DNA from: a bacterium
GTDB taxonomy: Bacteria; Krumholzibacteriota; Krumholzibacteriia; G020349025
Reading direction: 5' to 3'
NCBI GenBank assembly: GCA_031362565.1
Contig: JANLSU010000132.1
Span: 1-64,000, forward strand
DNA: 64,000 bases
Made by a program: the position numbers and the translations under genes. The notes beneath the pieces were generated by a model that saw only the letters and a list, made by a program, of their open reading frames with translations, ran no database searches and was not told the DNA's origin. Within the stretch, counting starts at the first letter, position 1. Every line of letters starts with the position of its first letter. Positions 47,577 to 60,363 of this stretch are shown one piece after another.

Positions 47577-47825
47577 ACGGGGGAAAGCTCCTTGCGCTCT
47601 TGGGACCGGCGCGGATGGTACCGCATCGCGCTAACGGCCGGTGGGCTGAGGTGGTGCGAACGCGGCGAGCCTGCGGGCCCGGTCGGCATAGAGGCCGAGC
47701 GAGAAGCGCGCGAAGCCATCCCGGCCAACCAAGGGCGGCCGCGGCGGATCGAAAATCGGTTATTCTGTGGATCGCTTCCTCGCCCGCACCCGACTGCACG
47801 TTCCGCCTGCCCGGAGGGGTCCGCG

Positions 47826-48497
47826 TTGATCGTCTACTTCGCCGGCATCGCAGCGGGACTCGTCCACGTCCTCACCGGCCCGGACCACTTGGCGGCACTG
47901 ACGCCGCTCGCCGCGTCGCGGCCGCGTCAGAGCGTTCGCGCCGGTGTGGAATGGGGCCTGGGTCATACGGGCGGCGTTGCACTCGTGGCCTTGCTCGGCA
48001 TTCTGCTGCGCGGTGTTCTGCCACTCGACCGACTGTCATCGTGGAGCGAACGTGGGGTGGGAATCGTGCTCATCGCCATCGGTCTTTGGGGCCTGCGCGC
48101 TGCGTTCTCCACCCGGGTGCATGCGCACGAGCACGAGCACGAGGGACATCCGCATGCGCATGTGCATGCCCATGCACAACCGCATGCTGCCGCGAATGCG
48201 GTGCCCGCGCACCGTCACTCGCACGCGGCTTTCGGGGTCGGGATCCTGCACGGACTCGCCGGTAGCTCGCATTTTCTGGGTGTACTTCCGGCGCTCGCGT
48301 TACCGTCCGCGGCCGCGGCCGGCGTCTACGTACTCGGCTTTGGCACCGGCAGCGTCGCGGCAATGGCCGCCTATTCGGCGTGTGTCGGCGCACTTGCATT
48401 GCGCAGCCGCCGCGGGCCCGCGCAGGCCTATCGCCTGCTTCTGGGCGGGGCCGCGACGGCAGCCCTTGTCGTCGGTTGCTTCTGGCTACGCCCTTGA
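47826..48497 (+). CDS. UreH/NiCoT-like nickel/cobalt transporter with His-rich loop
   Basis: HVLTGPDHL, WGLGH, HAHEHEHEGHPHAHVHAH, GILHGLAG; GGAGGG RBS before TTG. Confidence 0.8.
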   Translation: MIVYFAGIAAGLVHVLTGPDHLAALTPLAASRPRQSVRAGVEWGLGHTGGVALVALLGILLRGVLPLDRLSSWSERGVGIVLIAIGLWGLRAAFSTRVHAHEHEHEGHPHAHVHAHAQPHAAANAVPAHRHSHAAFGVGILHGLAGSSHFLGVLPALALPSAAAAGVYVLGFGTGSVAAMAAYSACVGALALRSRRGPAQAYRLLLGGAATAALVVGCFWLRP

Positions 48498-49319
48498 ACG
48501 GCGCTTGAAGGCCAGCACCGCTCCCAATACTGCCAAGCAGGCTGCCAGCATGACGAGAATGCTCGGCGACGCCGGCAAGTCGTAGTGCACCGACCCCAGC
48601 AGTCCCCCAACGCTCGCCAGGAACGCGAACAGCCAGCCGACGGCGAGTGCCGCACCTGGCCGCGACGCCGCCAGAATTCCCGCCACCGCCGGAATCACCA
48701 GCAGGCCGAAGACGAGCAGCACGCCGGCAATTTGCACCGACTGTGTCACCACGAGTCCAAACAGCGCATAGAACAGAAAATCCCACAGGAAGATTTTCCG
48801 TCCGCGCGCCCGCGCCCCCTCCGGGTCATTCGTGATCTCGAAGAACGGTTTGCGCAGGAGCACGTGCACGACGCTAATCGCGACATACAGGACGGCCGTC
48901 TTCAGCAAGCGGTTGGGGTCGACAGTGTAAAGAGTTCCGACCAGCGTTTCCTTCAGGTGTTCCATGCCCGAGGGATTGCTCTCGAGGACTAGGAACACCG
49001 CCGATTGCGCCGTCGCGAACACGATGCCGATGAAAGCCTCGAGTGGCACGCGACGGTCTTGGCTCCGGAGCCAAGCAAAACAGGCCGCCCCCACCAGCGT
49101 CATGCCGAGCGGCCAGAGATAGCTCGCCACCGGGTTCTCGTGCATCCCGGTGGCGATCGCAAACGCCACCCCGAGCGCCGCCATCTGCGCCAGCGCCAGA
49201 TCGACGAAGATGACACCCCGCCGTACTACGTGGAAGCCCAGATAGGCATGCAGCCCGGCCAGCACCAGAATCGCAAAGAGCGCGATGCGGAAAAAAGGCA
49301 GAGAAAACGCCTCCATCAT
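48486..49319 (-). CDS. metal ABC-3 type permease (ZnuB/MntB-like)
   Basis: LGFHVVRRGVIFVDLALAQ, EAFIG, GVLLVFGLLVIPA. Confidence 0.85.
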   Translation of the reverse strand: MMEAFSLPFFRIALFAILVLAGLHAYLGFHVVRRGVIFVDLALAQMAALGVAFAIATGMHENPVASYLWPLGMTLVGAACFAWLRSQDRRVPLEAFIGIVFATAQSAVFLVLESNPSGMEHLKETLVGTLYTVDPNRLLKTAVLYVAISVVHVLLRKPFFEITNDPEGARARGRKIFLWDFLFYALFGLVVTQSVQIAGVLLVFGLLVIPAVAGILAASRPGAALAVGWLFAFLASVGGLLGSVHYDLPASPSILVMLAACLAVLGAVLAFKRRSRA

Positions 49320-50200
49320 TTGCCTCCCGCAACCTGGTCCAGAATTGCCTGGATATGCGCCAGGTAGGACCCTGCTTTGATGTCGTCGCACGATCCGGAG
49401 GCGTGCACGATGCGAATCCCGGCTTGCCGCTTCAGGAACTCGCCGCCGTCTTCCGAGAAATACGGTTCCTCGATCACGACCGGGATGCTCTTCTGCTTGA
49501 TCACGTCGACGAGTTCCTGGAGGTGCCGGGCAGTCGGCGGAATGCCCGGAATGGGTTCGATCGTCGACACCACGTTGAGACCGAACGCGTCACCGAAATA
49601 GGCCCATGACCGGTGGTACGTGAGGATGTCGCGGCTCGACATCGACTTCATCTGCATGGCCCCGCGCACAGTGAGGTCATTGCATGCCTTCGAAAACTCC
49701 TCGGCATGTTTGTCGAAGTCGGCGGCGTGCGCCGGGTCGACCCTGGCGAGTGCCTCGGCGATCGTTTGTCCGGCGATGGCCGCATTGCGCGGGTCGAGCC
49801 AATAGTGCGGGTTGCCGTTCGGATGCACGTCGCCCATCGATGCGTCGACCTTGCCGGTCGGCTTCTCGAGCACATTGACGTTGGCCGAGCAGTCCACCAC
49901 AAGCACCTTGCTGTTGTGCGAACCATCGATGATCTGATCCGCCCACTGGTCGAGTCCCAAGCCCACCTTCAAGTACACCTGAGCGCGCGACACGCGCACC
50001 ATGTACGACGGCAGAACTTCGACGCGGTGCGGATCGGCGCCGGGACGCGCGATCGTCACCACCTCCACTTGGTCGCCGCCGATGGTCGAAGCGATGGAAC
50101 CGAGGTCGGTCGTCGAAGCAGCGACATGGATCGCGGCCTGCGCCGGCCCGAACGCCAACGCGGCCAGAACCACAAACACGCCGGCAAGATTGCGTTGCAT
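49316..50200 (-). CDS. metal substrate-binding protein (ZnuA/TroA cluster A-I)
   Basis: DPHRVE, GDVHPNGNPHYWLDP, TYHRSW, EPIPGIPP. Confidence 0.92.
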   Translation of the reverse strand: MQRNLAGVFVVLAALAFGPAQAAIHVAASTTDLGSIASTIGGDQVEVVTIARPGADPHRVEVLPSYMVRVSRAQVYLKVGLGLDQWADQIIDGSHNSKVLVVDCSANVNVLEKPTGKVDASMGDVHPNGNPHYWLDPRNAAIAGQTIAEALARVDPAHAADFDKHAEEFSKACNDLTVRGAMQMKSMSSRDILTYHRSWAYFGDAFGLNVVSTIEPIPGIPPTARHLQELVDVIKQKSIPVVIEEPYFSEDGGEFLKRQAGIRIVHASGSCDDIKAGSYLAHIQAILDQVAGGK

Positions 50201-50214
50201 GATTGTTGCCTCCA

Positions 50215-51333
50215 TTAGAACTGATGCGCCTTGTGCGGACCCATCGAATAGATGACGCGCAGCGTGTAGGTGTCGAACGAATCGCCGCCATCGGGGACGG
50301 TGCGGCGCCATTCACCGCGGAACACCGTGCTCTCTTCGAGCAGTGCGAGACCGGCATACGCGCCGATGCTCTGATCGCGCTCTTCGCCCAGAGTGGGGCG
50401 TTGGAAGGCTTCGTACGATGCGCCGGCATCGTAGCGCGTCGCCCAGTTGAAATCGGCGAAGATGTAGCCGCCGGTCGGAGTCACGACGCTCGTTTCGTAC
50501 CCGGTTGCGGGGTCCCATGCGGCCACGTCGCGATCGAGGTGCAGCGCTTCCCCTTGCAGTACCAGGCACGCCCGCGGACTCGTCCACAGCTTGGCTTTGG
50601 CATCGACCCCGAAGACACGGGTCCGCGCTCCGGCCGCAACGTTGTTGGTGCCACCGGTCGCCGACACACCGAATTCGATTCCCGATTGATCGCCGGCGAG
50701 TGCGAAGCCTGACACGCGACCGTTGTACGCCGGACGCGATTCCCCCGCCGCGTCGTCACCGCCCAGTGCAAGCGGGTCGCCGGCATCGCCGGACGGCAGG
50801 CGCGCGATCCGGAATGTGTCGCCCTGCAGCCAGTCGGCGGAGACATCGAGCGAAAAGTCGCCGGCGACCGGCACGCGCCGCGACAACGACACGCCGCGTT
50901 CAATGAGCGCCTCATCACCCGGCAGGTACGCCGCCAAGACGCCGAAGCGCTCCGCAAATGGCAACGCGTGCGGATGGGTCGGATTCAGATGTCCGAACGC
51001 GGTACGATACTGCCCGCCTTTCAGCGCCAACCCGGCGGGCAGGCCGCGCACCAGCGTGAAATAGCCTTCCTCCAGCTCGAGTCCGCCGGTACCCAGCGAC
51101 ATGGTGAAGTTGCCGTGTGCATACGGGTTCAACGGTGCGTCAAAGACGATCTCGGTTTCGCCGATGTCGATGCGCGGCCGTTTGCGATCGGCCGCCGCGG
51201 GGTCGTTGGTGAATGTGATGAACGGCTGCCCGATCACCGAAATGTCGGGGTTCACCACGCCGGCGATCGCGACCGCCGCCGCGAGCGCCAGAGTTGCCGA
51301 TGCCACCAGGGTCATCAGCCCAATACGAGACAC
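50215..51333 (-). CDS. outer-membrane beta-barrel associated with metal uptake
   Basis: Signal peptide, NPDISVIG, EEGY, FGHLNPTHPH, amphipathic strands, C-terminal GPHKAHQF. Confidence 0.75.
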   Translation of the reverse strand: MSRIGLMTLVASATLALAAAVAIAGVVNPDISVIGQPFITFTNDPAAADRKRPRIDIGETEIVFDAPLNPYAHGNFTMSLGTGGLELEEGYFTLVRGLPAGLALKGGQYRTAFGHLNPTHPHALPFAERFGVLAAYLPGDEALIERGVSLSRRVPVAGDFSLDVSADWLQGDTFRIARLPSGDAGDPLALGGDDAAGESRPAYNGRVSGFALAGDQSGIEFGVSATGGTNNVAAGARTRVFGVDAKAKLWTSPRACLVLQGEALHLDRDVAAWDPATGYETSVVTPTGGYIFADFNWATRYDAGASYEAFQRPTLGEERDQSIGAYAGLALLEESTVFRGEWRRTVPDGGDSFDTYTLRVIYSMGPHKAHQF

Positions 51334-51341
51334 GTGCAATC

Positions 51342-51402
51342 CTCCAAGGAATCATCCTGGAATCGTCGCCGGCGCACCGCACAAGTTGTTAATGCGATGC
51401 GC
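51342..51402 (-). promoter_or_regulatory. two predicted RNA hairpins in the leader of the barrel gene, one overlapping the GGAGG RBS
   Basis: GCGCAUCGCA/UGCGGUGCGC stem (51402-51372) and UUCCAGGA-UGAU-UCCUUGGAG stem (51362-51342), paired by eye. Confidence 0.5.
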
Positions 51403-51476
51403 AAACACAGCTCGATGCACGGCGATTGAGACGCCGGTCGTCGAGACGCTGCGTGTGGCTCATGGCACGGGCCGTG

Positions 51477-51764
51477 TCAGGCGATCGCGAGATTCCCGGG
51501 AGGGGCGCGGAGCGGTGCGTGAACGATGCTCGGAGGTTCAAGGCGGCGGTGTTCGACGCGCCAGGTGGTTTCGAAAACCTGCGCCTCGAGCAGGCGCGTT
51601 ACATCATAGACGACGGGTGGAGCGCCGGAGGGCGCCGCGACGACGCGGCAGTATCCGCAAGCTGCTTCCTCGAAGACGCAGTGGTGCCCATGCACCGGCT
51701 CGGCGCGGGCCACGAACGACACGAGCAGCACCAGGCAGAAGAGTATGGCGCGCACCCGTGGCAT
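51477..51764 (-). CDS. DUF2946/CruR-like leader protein (signal peptide, His/Cys cluster, CxxC, RAPP)
   Basis: Hydrophobic leader ending ARA, HGHHC...CGYC, C-terminal PLRAPP; first gene of the metal-uptake cluster. Confidence 0.72.
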   Translation of the reverse strand: MPRVRAILFCLVLLVSFVARAEPVHGHHCVFEEAACGYCRVVAAPSGAPPVVYDVTRLLEAQVFETTWRVEHRRLEPPSIVHAPLRAPPGNLAIA

Positions 51765-51941
51765 CGGCTTCCCCCCGTTGCGGCCGGCCGGCTTCGAACC
51801 GGCGGCAAGACGGTCGAGCTCTTGAACGCTAGAGCCCCGGGCGGCGAGCCGTCAATCCGATCCCGGCCGCGGGCGATTCCAGACAGTTCCACGCATGCCC
51901 CTTACGGGCACCTTGGAACGGCCTTGCTGACGGACCGCCCC

Positions 51942-51992
51942 TTGACCCGGCCCGCAGGCGACCCGTATTCTCTGATTGAGATTGAGTCTCAA
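51942..51992 (+). promoter_or_regulatory. sigma70-like promoter with downstream Fur-box-like palindrome
   Basis: TTGACC (51942-47), 18 nt, TATTCT (51966-71); TTGAGA-TTGAG-TCTCAA (51976-92) upstream of fur-feoB. Confidence 0.65.
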
Positions 51993-52042
51993 CTACAGGT
52001 TGCGGCCGGGTGTTCCGGCCCCTCCACGGGGGAGCCGAGAAG

Positions 52043-52558
52043 ATGGAAGCCCAGCCCGCGCGCCGGCGCGCCGAACGCGGCCACCCCAAGACGGCCGAGC
52101 CCGAAGAGCGCCTCCGCGACTACCTGCGGTCCAAGAACCTGCGCATGACCCCCGAGCGGAGGTGGGTGCTGCAAGGCGTGCTGTCCCGCGACGGCCATTT
52201 CGATGCCGAGGAGTTGCTGCAGTTCCTGCATCGCCGCCACATGCCGGTCTCCCGCGCCACGCTCTACCGCACCCTCGATCACCTGACCGCGTCCGGCCTC
52301 GTCAAGCGGCACCGCTTCGGCCAAGGACACGCGCTGTTCGAGCACATCTATGGACGGCACCACCATGACCACATGGTGTGCGACCGCTGCCATAGCGTGA
52401 TCGAGTTCATGAATGAAGATATCGAGCGGCTGCAGGACCAGGTGTGTTCCGAACACGGCTTCGTGTCGACCAATCACGTCATGCAAATTTTCGGCATCTG
52501 CAAGAGCTGCCAAGAGGCGGAGGCGAAACGCATGTCGATGGCGACTCGTGAAGCATGA
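52043..52558 (+). CDS. fur: Fur-family transcriptional repressor
   Basis: LRMTPER, HFDAEEL, SRATLYRTL, HHHDHMVCDRC, GICKSC. Confidence 0.9.
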   Translation: MEAQPARRRAERGHPKTAEPEERLRDYLRSKNLRMTPERRWVLQGVLSRDGHFDAEELLQFLHRRHMPVSRATLYRTLDHLTASGLVKRHRFGQGHALFEHIYGRHHHDHMVCDRCHSVIEFMNEDIERLQDQVCSEHGFVSTNHVMQIFGICKSCQEAEAKRMSMATREA

Positions 52559-54687
52559 GCGACGCCAACCACAACTTGGCGCTGGGCGACAGCGATGTGA
52601 CAAGCGGCGACGCCGCGCTTTCGACCGCGGCACGGCTCGGGATGCGTGGCGAGAGTACGGCGTCACTGCCGCGCCTCGTGCTCGTCGGTAATCCCAACGT
52701 CGGCAAGAGCGTCCTCTTTGGATTCCTCACGAAGCGTTACGTGACGGTGTCGAACTATCCCGGCACGACCGTCACTGTGACGCGCGGCAGAGCAACGATC
52801 GACGGGCGCGAATTCGAAGTCCTTGACTCGCCCGGAATCAACAGCCTCGTCCCGATGTCGGAGGACGAGGAAGTCACCCGTAACATCCTGTTGCGCGCCC
52901 CGGCCGAGGCGGTCGTGCAAGTCGCCGATGCCAAGAACTTGCGCCGCGCCCTCATCTTGTCGACGCAACTGGCCGAAATGGGTGTGCCCTTCGCGCTCGA
53001 CCTCAACATGACGGACGAGGCGGCCGAGCTGGGTGTACGCATCGATCGCGAGCGGCTCGAAGAGCGCCTCGGAGTGCACGTCGTGCGCACCGTAGCCACG
53101 CGCCGCAACGGCGTCGACGACCTGCGCCGCGCGCTCGTGAACCAACGGCGTTGCACGTTGCGGATCCCCTATCCCGCCGCCCTCGAAGAGGCCATTGCCG
53201 CGATGGCGCCGACGCTGCCGGACACCCACCTCGACAAGCGCGCCCTCGCAGTATCAGTGCTGTCCGGTGACGAAACACTCCGGCCGTGGCTGCACGAACG
53301 AATCGGTGACGCCGGTGTGCAAATGCTCGAGGATTTGCGCCGCCAGACGGCAGCCCGCATCCGCGAGCCGTTGTCGGTGGTCGTGAACCGCAGCCGCTTG
53401 CAGGCCGTCGATGCCCTGCTGCGTGAGGTCGAATCACGGCCCAAGCACCGGGTCGGCGGCTGGCTCGATCAACTGGGCAGTTACAGCATGCACCCTTTGT
53501 GGGGCGTGCCGATTCTCTTGGGCGTCTTGTGGGTCATGTACCAGTTCGTGGGGGTCTTGGGCGCCGGCACTCTGGTCGACGTGCTGGAAAACAAATTCTT
53601 CGCCGCCCATTTGTCGCCGTGGGCCATGCAAGCGGCCGACGCCCTGCTGCGGTTTCCGCACACTCACGTCATCGTGAACGGCGTCATTCAATCCGACTAC
53701 ACGTCGACGGCGACGGCGTACACCACCGCCCAGCAGGTCGCGCGCTTCGTGCACGATTTGCTGGTCGGGCAGTACGGCCAGATCACTATGGCGCTTTCCT
53801 ATTCGATCGCCCTCATTCTGCCGATCGTGTCGACATTCTTCCTGGCCTTCGGGATGCTGGAGGATTCGGGCTACCTGCCGCGCCTCGCCGTCATGGTGAA
53901 CCGGCTCTTCAAATTGATGGGCCTGAACGGCAAGGCCGTGCTTCCCATGGTGCTCGGCTTGGGCTGCGACACGATGGCGACCTTGACGACGCGCATTCTC
54001 GAGACCAAAAAAGAGCGGATCATCGTGACGCTGCTCTTGGCACTCGGCGTGCCGTGCTCGGCGCAACTGGGCGTCATTCTCGGCATGATCCGGTCGCTGT
54101 CGATCGGCGCCACGATCGTTTGGGGCGGGTCGATCGTGGTGACCATGTTCGCGGTCGGCTGGCTCGCGGCCAAGCTCCTGCCGGGACAATCGTCCGACTT
54201 CATTCTGGAACTGCCGCCCATCCGCCTGCCGCAGTTGAGCAACATCGTCGTCAAGACGCTGGCACGGATCGAATGGTATCTGAAAGAAGCCGTGCCGCTC
54301 TTCCTGCTCGGCACTTTGGTGCTCTTCCTGGCCGACCGCCTGCGCATTTTGGGCGTCATCGAACGTATCTCCGAACCCATCGTCGTCGGGGTGCTCGGGC
54401 TGCCGGCCAAGGCCGCCGACGCCTTTCTGATCGGTTTCTTGCGGCGCGACTACGGCGCCGCCGGCCTGTACGACATGGCGCGCGACGGCCTCCTGAACCC
54501 CGTCCAAGTCGTGGTGTCGATGGTGACGATCACCCTCTTCATCCCGTGTATCGCCAACTTCTTCATCATGATCAAGGAACGCGGTGCCAAGACCGCGCTC
54601 CTCATGACGGCGTTCGTCGTGCCCATGGCGCTCTTCGTCGGTGGCGTGCTCAACTTCGGCCTGCACGCGCTGGGGGTGACGTTCTAG
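52555..54687 (+). CDS. feoB: ferrous iron transport protein B
   Basis: GNPNVGKS, NYPGTT, DSPG, NMTDE, LEDSGYLPR, GLGC, PCSAQ, ELPP. Confidence 0.96.
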   Translation: MSDANHNLALGDSDVTSGDAALSTAARLGMRGESTASLPRLVLVGNPNVGKSVLFGFLTKRYVTVSNYPGTTVTVTRGRATIDGREFEVLDSPGINSLVPMSEDEEVTRNILLRAPAEAVVQVADAKNLRRALILSTQLAEMGVPFALDLNMTDEAAELGVRIDRERLEERLGVHVVRTVATRRNGVDDLRRALVNQRRCTLRIPYPAALEEAIAAMAPTLPDTHLDKRALAVSVLSGDETLRPWLHERIGDAGVQMLEDLRRQTAARIREPLSVVVNRSRLQAVDALLREVESRPKHRVGGWLDQLGSYSMHPLWGVPILLGVLWVMYQFVGVLGAGTLVDVLENKFFAAHLSPWAMQAADALLRFPHTHVIVNGVIQSDYTSTATAYTTAQQVARFVHDLLVGQYGQITMALSYSIALILPIVSTFFLAFGMLEDSGYLPRLAVMVNRLFKLMGLNGKAVLPMVLGLGCDTMATLTTRILETKKERIIVTLLLALGVPCSAQLGVILGMIRSLSIGATIVWGGSIVVTMFAVGWLAAKLLPGQSSDFILELPPIRLPQLSNIVVKTLARIEWYLKEAVPLFLLGTLVLFLADRLRILGVIERISEPIVVGVLGLPAKAADAFLIGFLRRDYGAAGLYDMARDGLLNPVQVVVSMVTITLFIPCIANFFIMIKERGAKTALLMTAFVVPMALFVGGVLNFGLHALGVTF

Positions 54688-54929
54688 TGAGCGCCGCGCA
54701 TGAACCCATGACCATGCCCTGCCCGCTGTGCGGCGGCACCCTCCGGGAACAAGTCACCGGCTGCTCGACTTGTCCCATGAATGGTGGCTGCGACATGCTG
54801 TGTTGCGATAACTGCGGATACGAGACCGTAGCACCACGTTCAGCGACCGTGGCCCTCGCGAAGAAAATCATCCGCTTTGTGAGAAGGAAGAAACGTGCAT
54901 CCGGAATTTCTGACCCAACCCACGGATGA
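54687..54929 (+). CDS. small Cys-rich FeoB-associated protein (8 Cys)
   Basis: CPLC-x9-CSTCP-x4-CDMLCCDNCGYE; GTG overlaps the feoB stop (alternative ATG 54708); hidden at the end of shadow ORF 53499..54929. Confidence 0.75.
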   Translation: MSAAHEPMTMPCPLCGGTLREQVTGCSTCPMNGGCDMLCCDNCGYETVAPRSATVALAKKIIRFVRRKKRASGISDPTHG

Positions 54930-55557
54930 GATCCTCGAGTCGCTGTGGTGTTTGCGCGAAGAAAACCGCGCCAATCTGCCGGCGCTCCTGGCGCGCATGC
55001 CCGCCGGCGACACCGAGGCGCTCGTGCGCCGTATGGCGGCGTCCGGCCTGCTGCGCCTGCAGGACGGCAACATCGAACTCGTGGGCGAAGGCGAAGCCCG
55101 CGCCCGCACCATCGTACGCTGCCACCGGCTCGCCCAACGCCTCCTGCACGATGTGCTGCTGCTGACGCACGACGAATCCGAGCAGACCGCCTGCCTGATG
55201 GAACACGTCTTGTCGCCGGTCGTGGCCGACGCCGTGTGCGGCTTCCTGGGACATCCGCCGACGAGTCCCTCGGGGCTCGCGATTCCGGACGGCGCCTGCT
55301 GCACGGCGCGCCATGGGGATGTACGGCCGGTCGTCGTGTCGCTGCGCGATCTCGAAATCGGCAAACCGGCGCGCATCGTGTTCATGTCGCAAAGCTTCCA
55401 CAAGCGCGTCGACCGCCTGGGCAGTTATGGTGTCGTGCCGGGAAGCATGGTGCGGCTGCGCCAGCGGCGGCCGTCGTACGTGCTCGATGTCGACGGCACG
55501 AGTTTGGCGCTCGATTCCGAGGTTGCGAGCGAAATCTACGTGCGGCGGGAGGACTGA
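54895..55557 (+). CDS. DtxR/MntR-family metal-dependent regulator with C-terminal FeoA domain
   Basis: DEILE, RCHRLAQRLL, ACLMEHVLS, LGHPPTSPSGLAIP; FeoA-like RLGSYGVVPG. Confidence 0.88.
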   Translation: MHPEFLTQPTDEILESLWCLREENRANLPALLARMPAGDTEALVRRMAASGLLRLQDGNIELVGEGEARARTIVRCHRLAQRLLHDVLLLTHDESEQTACLMEHVLSPVVADAVCGFLGHPPTSPSGLAIPDGACCTARHGDVRPVVVSLRDLEIGKPARIVFMSQSFHKRVDRLGSYGVVPGSMVRLRQRRPSYVLDVDGTSLALDSEVASEIYVRRED

Positions 55558-55559
55558 TC

Positions 55560-56873
55560 TTGGGCGACGCGCGCATTCCGATCGCCGGGCCGACCGAACT
55601 GCCGCCGGAGGCCGCCCACGGTCGTCTCTATCAACGCGACGAACTCCTGGCGCGGCTCGCGGATCCCACTCTCACTATTGCCGATGTGCTGCCGCGAGTC
55701 GCCTTCGAGGATGCACGCATTCCGGGCTCCTTGTGCCTGCCCCTCGACGAGATTCCGCAGCGCGCCCGCACGCTGCTCCCGGACATGGATCAAGAGATTG
55801 CGCTGTACTGCGGCGGCCCGACGTGTCCGCTGAGCGAGCAAGCGGTCGGCCAGTTGCTGCAGATGGGCTATCACAAAGTCGGCCACTATCCCGGCGGGAT
55901 CCTCGAGTGGACGGAAGTCGGTTGCCCGGTGGAGACGGGACCGGAGGATGCGCCGCGCAGGGTCACTGCGTCGGCATCGGCATCTGCCTCGGAAACCGGC
56001 GGCAACACGTCGAGCCAGAGTGTTGCGTCCGCCGCGGCGCGCAACCGGGGCACCGCATTTGTGCGCGGCCTGCGGGCGCGCCCACGGAGTTGGATCGAAC
56101 GCCTGGCGAATGTGTCCTACGGGGGACTGATCTGGCGTTGGTTCGCCATGGTTGGCGGGTTGGGACTCGCATACTGGATGATTCCGGCCTTGCATTGGGG
56201 CGCGCTCCGCGATGCCGGTGCGCCGGTGGAATTCACGTTGCCGGGTCTACTGACCGCGCTCTATTTCAGCGCCGTCACCGCAACCTCGGTCGGATTTGGC
56301 GATGTCGTCCCGATCGGCATACTGCGTCTCTTGGCGGTCGTCGAGGGCGCCGCGGGCCTCCTGCTCTTCGGCTGCATCATTTCGAAGCTCGTTTCGGCAC
56401 GGCAGGAAATGCTCGTCGAAGAAACCCATCGCACCGCCTTCGAGGACCGATTGGAACGGGTACGCACCAACCTGCACCTGGTGCTTTCCGAACTCCAAAC
56501 GATCGCCATCACGAACGCTACACAAGGATCGACTTCGGAGCGTGCCCTCGCCCGTCTCGAGAGCGTCGCCATGATGCTCGCTGGAGAGCTGCGCACGATT
56601 CACGACCTGCTGTACCATCCGCAGCAGGCGCCGGACGAATACATGCTCGAGGGATTGCTGGCCGGACTGGCCGCCGACCTGCGCGAGCTTGCCGATCTCG
56701 TCGCCGCGGCACCGCAAGCTCGCGAGCGTTCGCCGCTTCTCGGCACGACTTTGCTGAGCGTTCGCACCCTGGCCGGTGAGGTGTGTGGCGAATGTGTCCC
56801 CCGCCAGTACGCACCGCATCTGAAGGTGTGGATGGACCGCATCCAGGAATACGCCCGCACTCTGGCGCCATGA
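55560..56873 (+). CDS. rhodanese domain fused to a 2-TM potassium-channel domain
   Basis: RIPGSLCLP, YCGGPTCPLS, YPGGILEW; LYFSAVTATSVGFGDVVP; GGGAGG RBS before TTG. Confidence 0.82.
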   Translation: MGDARIPIAGPTELPPEAAHGRLYQRDELLARLADPTLTIADVLPRVAFEDARIPGSLCLPLDEIPQRARTLLPDMDQEIALYCGGPTCPLSEQAVGQLLQMGYHKVGHYPGGILEWTEVGCPVETGPEDAPRRVTASASASASETGGNTSSQSVASAAARNRGTAFVRGLRARPRSWIERLANVSYGGLIWRWFAMVGGLGLAYWMIPALHWGALRDAGAPVEFTLPGLLTALYFSAVTATSVGFGDVVPIGILRLLAVVEGAAGLLLFGCIISKLVSARQEMLVEETHRTAFEDRLERVRTNLHLVLSELQTIAITNATQGSTSERALARLESVAMMLAGELRTIHDLLYHPQQAPDEYMLEGLLAGLAADLRELADLVAAAPQARERSPLLGTTLLSVRTLAGEVCGECVPRQYAPHLKVWMDRIQEYARTLAP

Positions 56874-58479: not shown

Positions 58480-60363
58480 GTGCAGTTGCGAAACGTGTCC
58501 ACGATCGCGCTCCTCGCCGTCGCGATGGTCGCAATCCTGGCAACGACGACGCGCTACCATCGCGTTCACCTGCACGAGCCCGGTGAGGCGGCGCGCCCGG
58601 TCGAAGTGCTGGCCGGCCAATACGTTGCCTCGACCGCCTGCAAGGCCTGCCATCCGATTGAGTATGCGACGTGGCACGCCTCCTATCACCACACGATGAC
58701 TCAGAAGGCGGCTCCAGGCGCTGTGATCGGGCGCTTCGACGGCAGCGAGATCGCGACCGAGGGCTACATCTACAAAGTCGAGCACCAAGGAGATGACTAC
58801 TGGGTCGAGATTCGGAGCGCGCTCGATCCGCCCGGCACCGCCGGCATCAAGCGTACGATCCTCATGACCACGGGTTCGCACCACCAACAGATCTACTGGG
58901 CGGACAGCGGCATCGGCCGGGCGTTGGAATTGTTGCCGCTCCTATGGAACGTGCAGGAGCAACGGTGGAGAACTCGCGACGCCTTGTTCCTGCGGCCACC
59001 CAAGACCGTCGACGCACTTTCGAATCCCGCCCCGGGCGAGTGGAGCAAGAACTGCAACCGTTGCCATTCGACTTTTCCGCGGCCACGCGTCACCGAGCCG
59101 TTCCTGAAGGTCGACACGCAGGTCGTGGAGTTCGGGATTGCGTGTGAAGAGTGCCATGGCCCGGGTGACCACCACGTGCAGGTCAACATGGATCCGATCC
59201 GGCGCTTCCGCGAATACACCAACAACAGCCCGGACTCGACCATCGTGCAGCCGATGCGTTTGTCGCATCGCAGGTCGTCCGAGGTGTGCGGCCAGTGCCA
59301 CGCGGTGTCATTGCGCGGCCGGGCCGAAACCGCCCACTGGAACACTCAGGGCTTCAGCTTCGAGCCCGGCGGCGACCTGGAAGCCACCCAAACCCTCGTG
59401 CACAAAGGCGACGACACGCCGCTGCTGCGTTCCGCTGTGAAAGAGGTGCCATCCTTCGTCGATATGATGTTCTGGCCCGACGGTGTTGTCTGCGCCGCCG
59501 GGCGTGAATACAGCGGCATGCAGACGGCACCTTGTTTCGAACGCGGCACCATGTCTTGCATGTCGTGCCACCAAATGCACGAACGGCCGGGCGATGCGCG
59601 CCCACGGGCCGAATGGACCGAGGATCAGTTGAAGCCCGGCATGCGCGGCAACAACGCTTGCATCCAGTGCCATCCCAAGTTCAACGACGAGGCGCGTCTC
59701 ACGGCCCACACACACCACAAGGCGGCCTCCTCCGGCAGCAACTGCTACAACTGCCATATGCCGTTCACGACTTGGGCGCTCTCCAAAGCGGTGCGCAACC
59801 ATCACATCGACTCGCCGGTCGCGCAATCGAGCACATTGACGGAGCGGCCGAACGCTTGCAACCTCTGCCACCTCGACAAGACGCTCGAATGGACCGCCAC
59901 ATCCTTGTTCGACTGGTACAAAACACCGAAGCCGGAATTGACCGCGGCGGATCGGTCGATCGCGGCGGGCGTCCGTTGGGCCGTCTCCGGAGACGCACGC
60001 CAGCGGGTCTTCGTGGCGTGGTGCATGGGCTGGCCAGACGCTCAAGAAGCCAGCGGAACGGCGTGGATGGCGCCTTACTTCGCGCAACTGCTCGAGGATC
60101 CTTACGACCTGGTGCGTTTCGTTGCACAGCGTTCCCTGCGTACGGTGCCGGGCAGCGTGACGATCGGTTACGACTTCATGGACCCACCAGCGGCGCGGGC
60201 GCGCGCCACGGGACTGCTGCGGCAGTCGTGGCGGCGCGACGGTGCTCCGGCGGCGGCGCGCCACGCAGCGCTGCTCGTCGACGCCGAAGGCCGCTTGATG
60301 GACGCGGCCTTCTTGCAACTCCTCAACCAGCGGGAGAATCGTGATGTCATCCTCGGTGAGTGA
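58480..60363 (+). CDS. octaheme c-type cytochrome
   Basis: Eight CxxCH: CKACH, CNRCH, CEECH, CGQCH, CMSCH, CIQCH, CYNCH, CNLCH; N-terminal signal/anchor. Confidence 0.9.
   Translation: MQLRNVSTIALLAVAMVAILATTTRYHRVHLHEPGEAARPVEVLAGQYVASTACKACHPIEYATWHASYHHTMTQKAAPGAVIGRFDGSEIATEGYIYKVEHQGDDYWVEIRSALDPPGTAGIKRTILMTTGSHHQQIYWADSGIGRALELLPLLWNVQEQRWRTRDALFLRPPKTVDALSNPAPGEWSKNCNRCHSTFPRPRVTEPFLKVDTQVVEFGIACEECHGPGDHHVQVNMDPIRRFREYTNNSPDSTIVQPMRLSHRRSSEVCGQCHAVSLRGRAETAHWNTQGFSFEPGGDLEATQTLVHKGDDTPLLRSAVKEVPSFVDMMFWPDGVVCAAGREYSGMQTAPCFERGTMSCMSCHQMHERPGDARPRAEWTEDQLKPGMRGNNACIQCHPKFNDEARLTAHTHHKAASSGSNCYNCHMPFTTWALSKAVRNHHIDSPVAQSSTLTERPNACNLCHLDKTLEWTATSLFDWYKTPKPELTAADRSIAAGVRWAVSGDARQRVFVAWCMGWPDAQEASGTAWMAPYFAQLLEDPYDLVRFVAQRSLRTVPGSVTIGYDFMDPPAARARATGLLRQSWRRDGAPAAARHAALLVDAEGRLMDAAFLQLLNQRENRDVILGE

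Follow-up and report, generated by a model that had tools for sequence, protein, structure and literature searches.

What does a short reading frame that joins an export signal, a His/Cys cluster and a predicted ribosome-arrest motif do directly upstream of a set of metal-transport genes? Such a frame lies at 51477..51764 on the minus strand of the window, the 64,000-nucleotide stretch of Krumholzibacteriota DNA analysed here. We give a probability of roughly 60% to the reading that it senses a metal through ribosome arrest, as leaders of the CruR/CutF (DUF2946) type do, and so sets the expression of a metal-import cassette, with zinc as the most likely metal. Copper is the only metal shown so far to act via such leaders, and Roy et al. 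point out that riboswitches for Cu or Zn have not been described.

A leader with a putative metal site and a RAPP motif

The 95-residue leader has a basic and hydrophobic N-terminus ending in ARA, followed by a putative His/Cys metal site (H25 G H27 H28 C29 ... C36 G Y C39; 51648..51692, minus strand) that reads HGHHC-VFEEAA-CGYC in translation. A variable linker of 46 residues separates this site from a predicted RAPP arrest motif (51498..51509, minus strand; codons CGC GCC CCT CCC), after which six residues (GNLAIA) precede the TGA stop. The GTG start of the next gene, at 51333 and itself preceded by GGAGG, lies 143 nt past the leader stop. Translation thus confirmed what an earlier note had described, namely a 95-aa ORF with HGHHC-x6-CGYC and RAPP (51509-51498), 143 nt before a gene for a barrel protein; the Sec-type leader that it had proposed is likewise borne out as a signal-peptide-like N-terminus, judged by hydrophobicity alone (12-residue mean of 3.3).

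Scanned in all six frames, the genome yielded 39,893 candidate frames, 7 of which had a CxxC as well as a terminal R[AG]PP; by inspection the leader ORF is the only one of these with a signal-peptide-like N-terminus. The leader frame had a codon-model score of 14.9, and four other frames scored between -31 and -43; an antisense frame reached 12.9, which leaves the codon model indecisive on its own.

A single-sequence search with the leader in 40 relatives returned only noise (best E 0.008), and relatives were therefore located via the downstream porin and permease. A first set, obtained by scanning with the barrel encoded downstream of the leader, gave 80 loci, titled mostly Eisenbacteria and Krumholzibacteriia, with further lineages in Latescibacterota, Fibrobacteria, Elusimicrobia, Calditrichota, Gemmatimonadota and Spirochaetota; 13 loci with less than 500 nt upstream were dropped, leaving 67. 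Directly before the homologous porin, 66 of these 67 loci had an ORF ending in R[AGS]PP; among 1753 control positions there were 35 such ORFs, all of them without a CxxC at the right distance from the motif. The check put forward in the earlier note, a look for CxxC...RAPP frames upstream of homologous barrels, was thus positive. The terminal motif was RAPP in 55, RGPP in 10 and RSPP in 2 of the 67 counted with the window leader, and CxxC was 43-46 residues from the motif in all 58 first-set leaders that have one (46 in the window). A hydrophobic N-terminal segment (12-residue mean of at least 2.2) was found in 57 of these 58. The second set comprised 26 loci picked by permease, by score range, from 40 genomes of the window's class, four of them repeating first-set loci; porin, binding protein and leader were present in all 26 (25 by profile, L152 by eye).

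In an alignment of 88 leaders, no residues but the R and both prolines of the motif were invariant, at a mean column identity of 19%, and H25, H27, C36 and C39 were each conserved at 90% or more. Only the signal region, the His/Cys site, the spacing and RAPP are conserved. CxxC is present in 72 of the 88 leaders; the other 16 have CxC (7) or a single Cys (9) and keep several His. At least two His occur in 87 of 88, and Met is rare. We regard the frame as a real, conserved regulatory leader.

The sole Pfam family matched by the window leader was DUF2946 (PF11162; E 9.3e-4), and NCBIfam gave no match. The relationship to DUF2946 put forward in the earlier note was thus recovered, at a score (20.4 bits) under the family cut-off of 23.7, and we accordingly describe the leader as divergent and DUF2946-like, short of formal family membership. 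DUF2946 was matched by 35 of the 88 leaders at E <= 0.1 (best 2e-5) and the next family by two, and a language-model atlas placed the window leader close to clusters named DUF2946 (score 0.95). The fixed distance from CxxC to RAPP is also kept: in CruR (Bp2923) of Bordetella pertussis it is reported as 45, conserved within 1-2 (PMC9426467), against 43-46 here, which upholds the DUF2946/CruR-like reading. The leader is probably a divergent branch of the DUF2946/CruR type. By profile match alone, irrespective of gene context, the leader profile matches 5,697 clusters at 50% identity.

Several variants were observed. The sole first-set locus lacking the motif (L078:3200-4100) has a leader with a His cluster and CxxC that ends in RSPT. 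In seven loci (L134, L135, L143, L146, L147, L128 and L133) a single Cys and extra His replace CxxC, variants that are useful for probing metal choice. Sulfurovum mangrovi (NZ_CP087125.1; L156:3842-7148) carries the same cassette behind a His/CxxC leader that ends in HAPP at a spacing of 69, possibly a decayed or altered switch. The window's genome has a second leader-like ORF (G000:C20:8273-8749; L097:2274-2750), 158 aa long, His-rich and with CxC, which ends in RGPP plus three residues, 213 nt before an operon read as TolC/RND heavy-metal efflux; in a duplex calculation its RGPP codons pair with the SD of the next gene at -15.9 kcal/mol.

The leader precedes a porin, binding protein and permease cassette

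The gene directly downstream (50215..51333, minus strand) encodes an outer-membrane porin with an OprP-like predicted fold, an invariant HxH and a C-terminal His motif. Neither Pfam nor NCBIfam matched it, nor did its profile match PDB sequences. Folding of the single sequence gave a pLDDT of 31, and the alignment-based AF2 model (pLDDT 94.7) was used instead; its best structural match was OprP (2o4v; Z 28.2, rmsd 2.6 over 298 residues). The 346-residue mature model has no plug, and TonB-dependent receptors matched at Z of about 11; that label does not fit the predicted structure. Its His and Glu residues are kept in distant members. On the basis of this model, the database label 'zinc-regulated TonB-dependent receptor' may well hide a metal porin.

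The porin gene is followed by genes for a cluster A-I (ZnuA-family) binding protein (49316..50200, minus strand; Pfam ZnuA, E 3e-54) with histidines H58, H132 and H196, and for an ABC-3 (ZnuB-like) permease that ends the cassette (48486..49319, minus strand; Pfam ABC-3, E 7e-34). All NCBIfam scores for these two proteins were under cut-off. Each of the three His was present in 102 of 102 aligned cassette sequences, the third ligand position being His throughout. Among loci with room, the binding protein followed the porin in 74 of 74 and the permease was present in 71 of 71. The proposed link of the leader to a porin/SBP/permease set is therefore tight, whether loci are picked by porin (66/67) or by permease (26/26).

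No ATPase gene follows the window permease. An ORF with Walker A plus the ABC signature was absent from all 75 loci checked, two of which had a Walker-A-like motif alone; at L053:6792-8522 an ORF directly after the permease has such a motif and no ABC signature. In one locus of the second set, an ABC ATPase gene lies two genes farther on. Fourteen genomes have strong ABC-3 permeases of this type only; in 12 of the 14 there was no ZnuC/AztA-like match (E <= 1e-36) among up to 60 candidates scored per genome, at a genome completeness of 64 to 100%. AztA-like ATPases in two genomes (G016, G036) were rejected as partners, lying away from ABC-3 permeases in what we read, from neighbouring ORFs, as B12-type operons. 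The window's genome also encodes another cluster A-I system, of conventional make-up and equipped with an ATPase of its own (G000:C91:43962-46461; L096), which is a candidate donor; the cassette may use an ATPase borrowed from elsewhere. In the coupling-helix region of the permease, D, A and G are kept and two aromatic residues of ATPase-linked permeases are missing (100 versus 21 sequences). Three loci (L151, L152, L153) have two different permease genes in tandem and no adjacent ATPase motif. A binding protein and ABC-3 permease with no ATPase gene of their own are the transport question that this cassette raises.

Predicted pairing of the RAPP codons with the porin ribosome-binding site

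The 143-nt intergenic region between leader and porin (51334..51476, minus strand) has more C than G over its first 60 nt and ends in an SD arm, GAUUCCU-U-GGAGG (51353-51341). This arm is predicted to form a helix with CCUCC-C-GGGAAUC (51491..51503, minus strand), an anti-SD arm that overlaps the stall site. The computed energy of this duplex with the porin RBS is -23.7 kcal/mol, and in context the arms pair with a probability of 0.67. Codon choice in the motif is unusual across the family: the first Pro codon of RAPP is CCT in 37 of 67 loci, compared with 6% in porin genes, and in 15 of 19 of the second set, and the Ala codon is GCT in 26 of 55, compared with 5%. CCT-type RAPP codons spell CCUCC, the complement of GGAGG. 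The mean energy of the native RAPP-SD duplex was -14.39 kcal/mol, against -12.49 +/- 0.3 in GC-binned permutations (0/5000); since the loci are related, p-values for this pairing are overstated. In 45 of 65 cases the computed duplex of the RAPP region with the porin RBS was more favourable than that with the binding-protein RBS of the same locus. Both in the first set and in 19 further loci, the pairing excess was greatest at the stall site (of 21 second-set loci two were dropped, no start being found, and the start of L007 was set by hand). On these calculations the RAPP codons double as an anti-SD arm that covaries with the porin RBS across the family.

A stall footprint on RAPP lowered the mean RBS opening energy by 1.57 kcal/mol, compared with 0.13 and -0.11 kcal/mol for control footprints 45 and 90 nt upstream, in equilibrium folding calculations that ignore the order of transcription. 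A gain of at least 1 kcal/mol was found in only 33 of 67 loci, and a loss as large in 7, the window locus among them: despite its predicted helix, its RBS opening energy rose from 12.8 to 15.2 kcal/mol under the footprint, and accessibility was unchanged (0.27 versus 0.26). RAPP-SD pairing exceeded 0.3 in only 22 of 67 loci, the native RBS was the best partner of 67 in just one locus, and SD accessibility moved from 0.37 to 0.40 under the stall footprint, a comparison made without a shifted-footprint control.

A second feature of the transcript is an excess of C over G, of +0.17 in the leader linker (positive in 64/67) and +0.18 in the 60 nt after the stop (62/67). The corresponding values are 0.035 downstream of the permease stop and 0.026 for 840 co-directional intergenic regions in the window's genome, where rho is present. 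No intrinsic terminator was found between leader and porin, and the overall folding energy of the intergenic region is unremarkable (z -0.99). Together, the anti-SD arm and the C>G bubble imply that a stall should switch the uptake operon on.

Upstream region and genomic neighbourhood

A putative sigma-70 promoter for the leader operon, TTGACG-18 nt-TAGCGT (51826..51855, minus strand), was read from the sequence; a consensus promoter scan did not list it. CTTGAC is the most enriched 6-mer upstream of the leaders (36/88 versus 6.25 expected), and no operator common to all 88 was found there. A palindrome, TTGAGA-n5-TCTCAA (51976..51992, assigned to no strand), lies just after a plus-strand promoter at 51942-51971; we take it to be Fur-box-like, and it probably belongs to the divergent fur-feoB operon and not to the leader. 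A Fur-like box accompanies 4 of 88 leaders, all in the window's family, and Fur control as a general feature of the cassette was rejected on this count.

The divergent fur-feoB operon (52034-55557, plus strand) also holds a DtxR-dimerisation/FeoA-domain gene and, near 54684-54900, a short ORF rich in Cys. In L130, L131 and L136, too, fur-feoB lies head to head with the leader operon, and feoB alone adjoins the cassette in L133, L135, L143, L146 and L147. Three of these loci (L135, L146, L147) have in common, between leader and divergent feoB, the palindrome TTAG[C/T]CTAGACTAA, which resembles a DtxR/IdeR-type box. On the other side of the cassette, a gene whose His-rich membrane-protein product weakly matches Ni/Co transporters (47655-48497, plus strand; E 7e-5) is convergent with the permease and overlaps its end; it was found in none of the 80 related loci. 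Farther along the plus strand are a rhodanese plus ion-channel fusion (55557-56873) and a multiheme cytochrome c (58480-60363).

Zinc as the likeliest signal

The three genes have homologues in Vibrio campbellii (profile E 2e-50 for the porin, 2.5e-52 for the binding protein and 5.7e-33 for the permease), where the porin is preceded by two Zur-like boxes, judged against the site printed in PMC9817125, and by no leader. According to the same source, V. campbellii and V. parahaemolyticus have this cluster in common, and omr-znuAII-znuBII of V. parahaemolyticus rises 283-1033-fold under zinc limitation; ZnuAII is reported to help growth in low zinc (PMC3794297). By way of V. campbellii, we infer that the V. 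parahaemolyticus genes are homologous to the leader-linked cassette. In the window's genome we found no Zur. It has two Fur-family genes, one beside feoB and the other PerR-like near genes read as ahpC/ahpD, and from their sequences and settings they look like Fur and PerR. Four carriers of the leader cassette (G019, G024, G029 and G034; 95-96% complete) gave no Fur-family match at all. The leader thus appears, from these gene inventories, to stand in for Zur, the regulator of the homologous Vibrio cassette.

Zinc is our best guess because of the three-His binding protein, the Zur-like boxes and zinc-limitation induction in Vibrio, the lack of a detected Zur in the window's genome and the leaders that keep His, and we rate it as the likeliest signal, somewhat better than an even bet. 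Three-His binding proteins are not strictly zinc-specific. Also against zinc, the neighbours of the window cassette are Fe(II) uptake (fur-feoB) and the His-rich Ni/Co-transporter-like gene, and CxxC at this spacing is the copper signature in CruR (PMC9426467). The extra His had been taken to suggest Zn, Ni or Co: a metal other than copper does look likely, and zinc has gained comparative support, whereas Ni and Co have gained none specific to them.

Proposed mechanism and alternatives

In the mechanism that we favour, the ribosome would stall with the two Pro codons of RAPP in its P and A sites, as expected from the family. The stalled ribosome would cover the anti-SD arm (RAPP and the next few codons), which computation at the family level otherwise pairs with the porin RBS, and would shield a C-rich stretch open to Rho loading, so that porin, binding protein and permease would be made. 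Plentiful metal, encountered either inside the cell or, as the earlier note supposed, on the periplasmic side during export, at the mouth of SecY, would bind the His/Cys site, which would lie 43-46 residues before the motif and just beyond the tunnel; the site would fold, and the pull of folding would free the stall, after which the SD would be sequestered again and/or Rho would terminate, turning uptake off. Arrest at RAPP, metal-driven release and shut-off of uptake are proposed here by analogy with CruR and ApdP-type peptides.

The same leader could act in the same direction mainly through Rho-dependent termination, as in CruR, with the SD pairing a by-product of a rut site rich in pyrimidines. 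We think this possible but rather doubtful. As in the map of CruR, the C>G bubble starts in the linker and continues past the leader stop, the intergenic regions are long (51-243 nt across the family), rho is present and the window's own locus gains no RBS opening; a rut site, however, would not predict better pairing with the porin RBS of the same locus than with those of other loci, nor that the porin RBS should beat the binding-protein RBS beside it (45/65), nor pairing that is strongest at the stall site. Both layers of control could operate together. There is also a limited chance that the leader works as proposed with Cu, Ni, Co, Mn or Fe as signal and cargo. The CxxC of CruR, at this spacing, is reported to sense Cu, with only a moderate effect of Zn (PMC9426467), and His-rich CutF-like leaders have been tied to Ni/Co genes (PMC9973294); fur-feoB or feoB adjoins the cassette in two families, and the window has its adjacent His-rich gene with the weak Ni/Co match. 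Against these metals speak the retention of several His in the 16 of 88 leaders that have no CxxC, the near-universal pair of His (87/88) with Met rare, the invariant third His of the binding protein (102/102), the restriction of the Fur-like box to 4 of 88 leaders and the Zur-like boxes of the Vibrio counterpart.

We consider it unlikely that polarity is that of CutF, with metal binding prolonging the stall and inducing a cassette for sequestration or detoxification. Unmasking of an SD by a stalled ribosome is the mode of CutF, which is copper-induced (PMC9973294), and the permease, which comes with no ATPase, is changed at conserved positions, so that the direction of transport is presumed; the V. 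parahaemolyticus counterparts are nevertheless induced by zinc starvation (PMC9817125), ZnuAII aids low-zinc growth (PMC3794297), and spacing and RAPP motif match CruR. Less likely still is an arrest peptide that monitors secretion or disulfide formation, or a product that is simply a small peptide, exported and able to bind metal, that regulates nothing. Sec export is monitored by RAPP peptides such as ApdA/ApdP, some RAPP peptides precede thioredoxin-like genes (PMC12992588), and 57 of 58 CxxC leaders have the hydrophobic N-terminal segment; against these ideas speak the conserved His cluster, the fixed distance from His/Cys to RAPP across an unconserved linker, and a leader strictly first before a metal transporter.

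If the metal-sensing arrest leader is tuned to zinc as proposed, it would be a post-transcriptional zinc sensor and would explain control of zinc uptake in genomes with no detectable Zur. A bolder reading, to which we give a rather low probability, is a zinc-sensing nascent peptide that takes the place of Zur across numerous poorly studied phyla. One 12-nt stretch would serve both as arrest motif and as anti-SD arm, and the leader would control a zinc-selective porin lined with His and coupled to an ATPase-free ABC-type permease. Natural variants within the family, with CxxC, CxC, or one Cys and His at a fixed distance, bear on the choice of metal and on how one scaffold yields 'off' (CruR) or 'on' (CutF).

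The claim of a new target class was overstated: leader-porin pairs already stand among the rows listed in the source data of PMC12992588 (2025), whose main text has no 'zinc', 'Shine-Dalgarno' or 'stem-loop', and the neighbour lists of PMC9973294 may include ZnuA or porin neighbours. In a search mainly of openly available literature, we found no paper describing in its text a zinc-sensing leader or the pairing of leader and cassette. The present analysis adds the absence of an ATPase gene from the cassette and the predicted pairing of RAPP codons with the porin RBS. As a separate observation, DUF2796 (ZrgA, a zinc-uptake protein) is listed among the genes most enriched behind RAPP ORFs (137 versus 2; PMC12992588). 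Vibrio zrgD (DUF2607) is numbered next to zrgA (PMC9817125), and one leader matches DUF2607 weakly (E 0.003); by this similarity, ZrgD may be a leader of this kind.

Comparison with known systems

Like CruR, the window leader is the first gene of an uptake operon, with an export signal, CxxC, about 45 residues and a C-terminal RAPP, and it too is followed by a long intergenic region with a C>G bubble, which in CruR holds a rut site. Arrest of CruR at RAPP has been demonstrated in vitro (PMC12992588). In contrast to CruR, the window leader is 95 rather than 145 aa long, is His-rich, scores under the Pfam cut-off and lies outside Proteobacteria; it has a predicted anti-SD arm on its RAPP codons, and its target is a porin/ZnuA/ZnuB cassette, whereas that of CruR is a TonB-dependent transporter with a PepSY_TM protein. 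CutF of Rhodobacter capsulatus has in common with it a Sec signal, a Cys/His site and a Pro-rich C-terminus, and its stalling unmasks the downstream SD; CutF, however, has CxxxC and a PPP repeat in place of CxxC and RAPP. CruR is reported to work without a signal peptide and CutF to require one (PMC9426467; bioRxiv 2025.02.05.636593). CutF is copper-induced and controls a detoxifying oxidase, whereas the target here looks like an importer, and the opposite polarity is therefore predicted. Non-copper CutF-like leaders have been proposed (PMC9973294).

In SecM, MifM, VemP, ApdA/ApdP and uDF (PMC10987492), a stalled ribosome opens a stem that hides the next SD, as is predicted for the leader family here, with RAPP/RAGP-type arrest among them. 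Unlike the window leader, SecM-type peptides monitor protein export and have no metal site, and ApdA/ApdP stand upstream of sec/yidC genes rather than of a porin, binding protein and permease; the arms in the window are about 145 nt apart. The downstream genes resemble Vibrio omr-znuAII-znuBII in porin, three-His ZnuA-like protein, permease and lack of an ATPase gene. They differ in that the Vibrio cluster is assigned to the Zur regulon and, in V. campbellii, is preceded by no leader ORF; its 'TonB-dependent receptor' label misfits the predicted porin fold of the family. With ZnuABC and AztABC the cassette shares a cluster A-I binding protein and an ABC-3 permease, in contrast to which it has no ATPase gene and a partly changed coupling-helix region. 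By analogy, then, the anatomy of the leader and its predicted direction are those of CruR, and its predicted SD step is like that of CutF or SecM.
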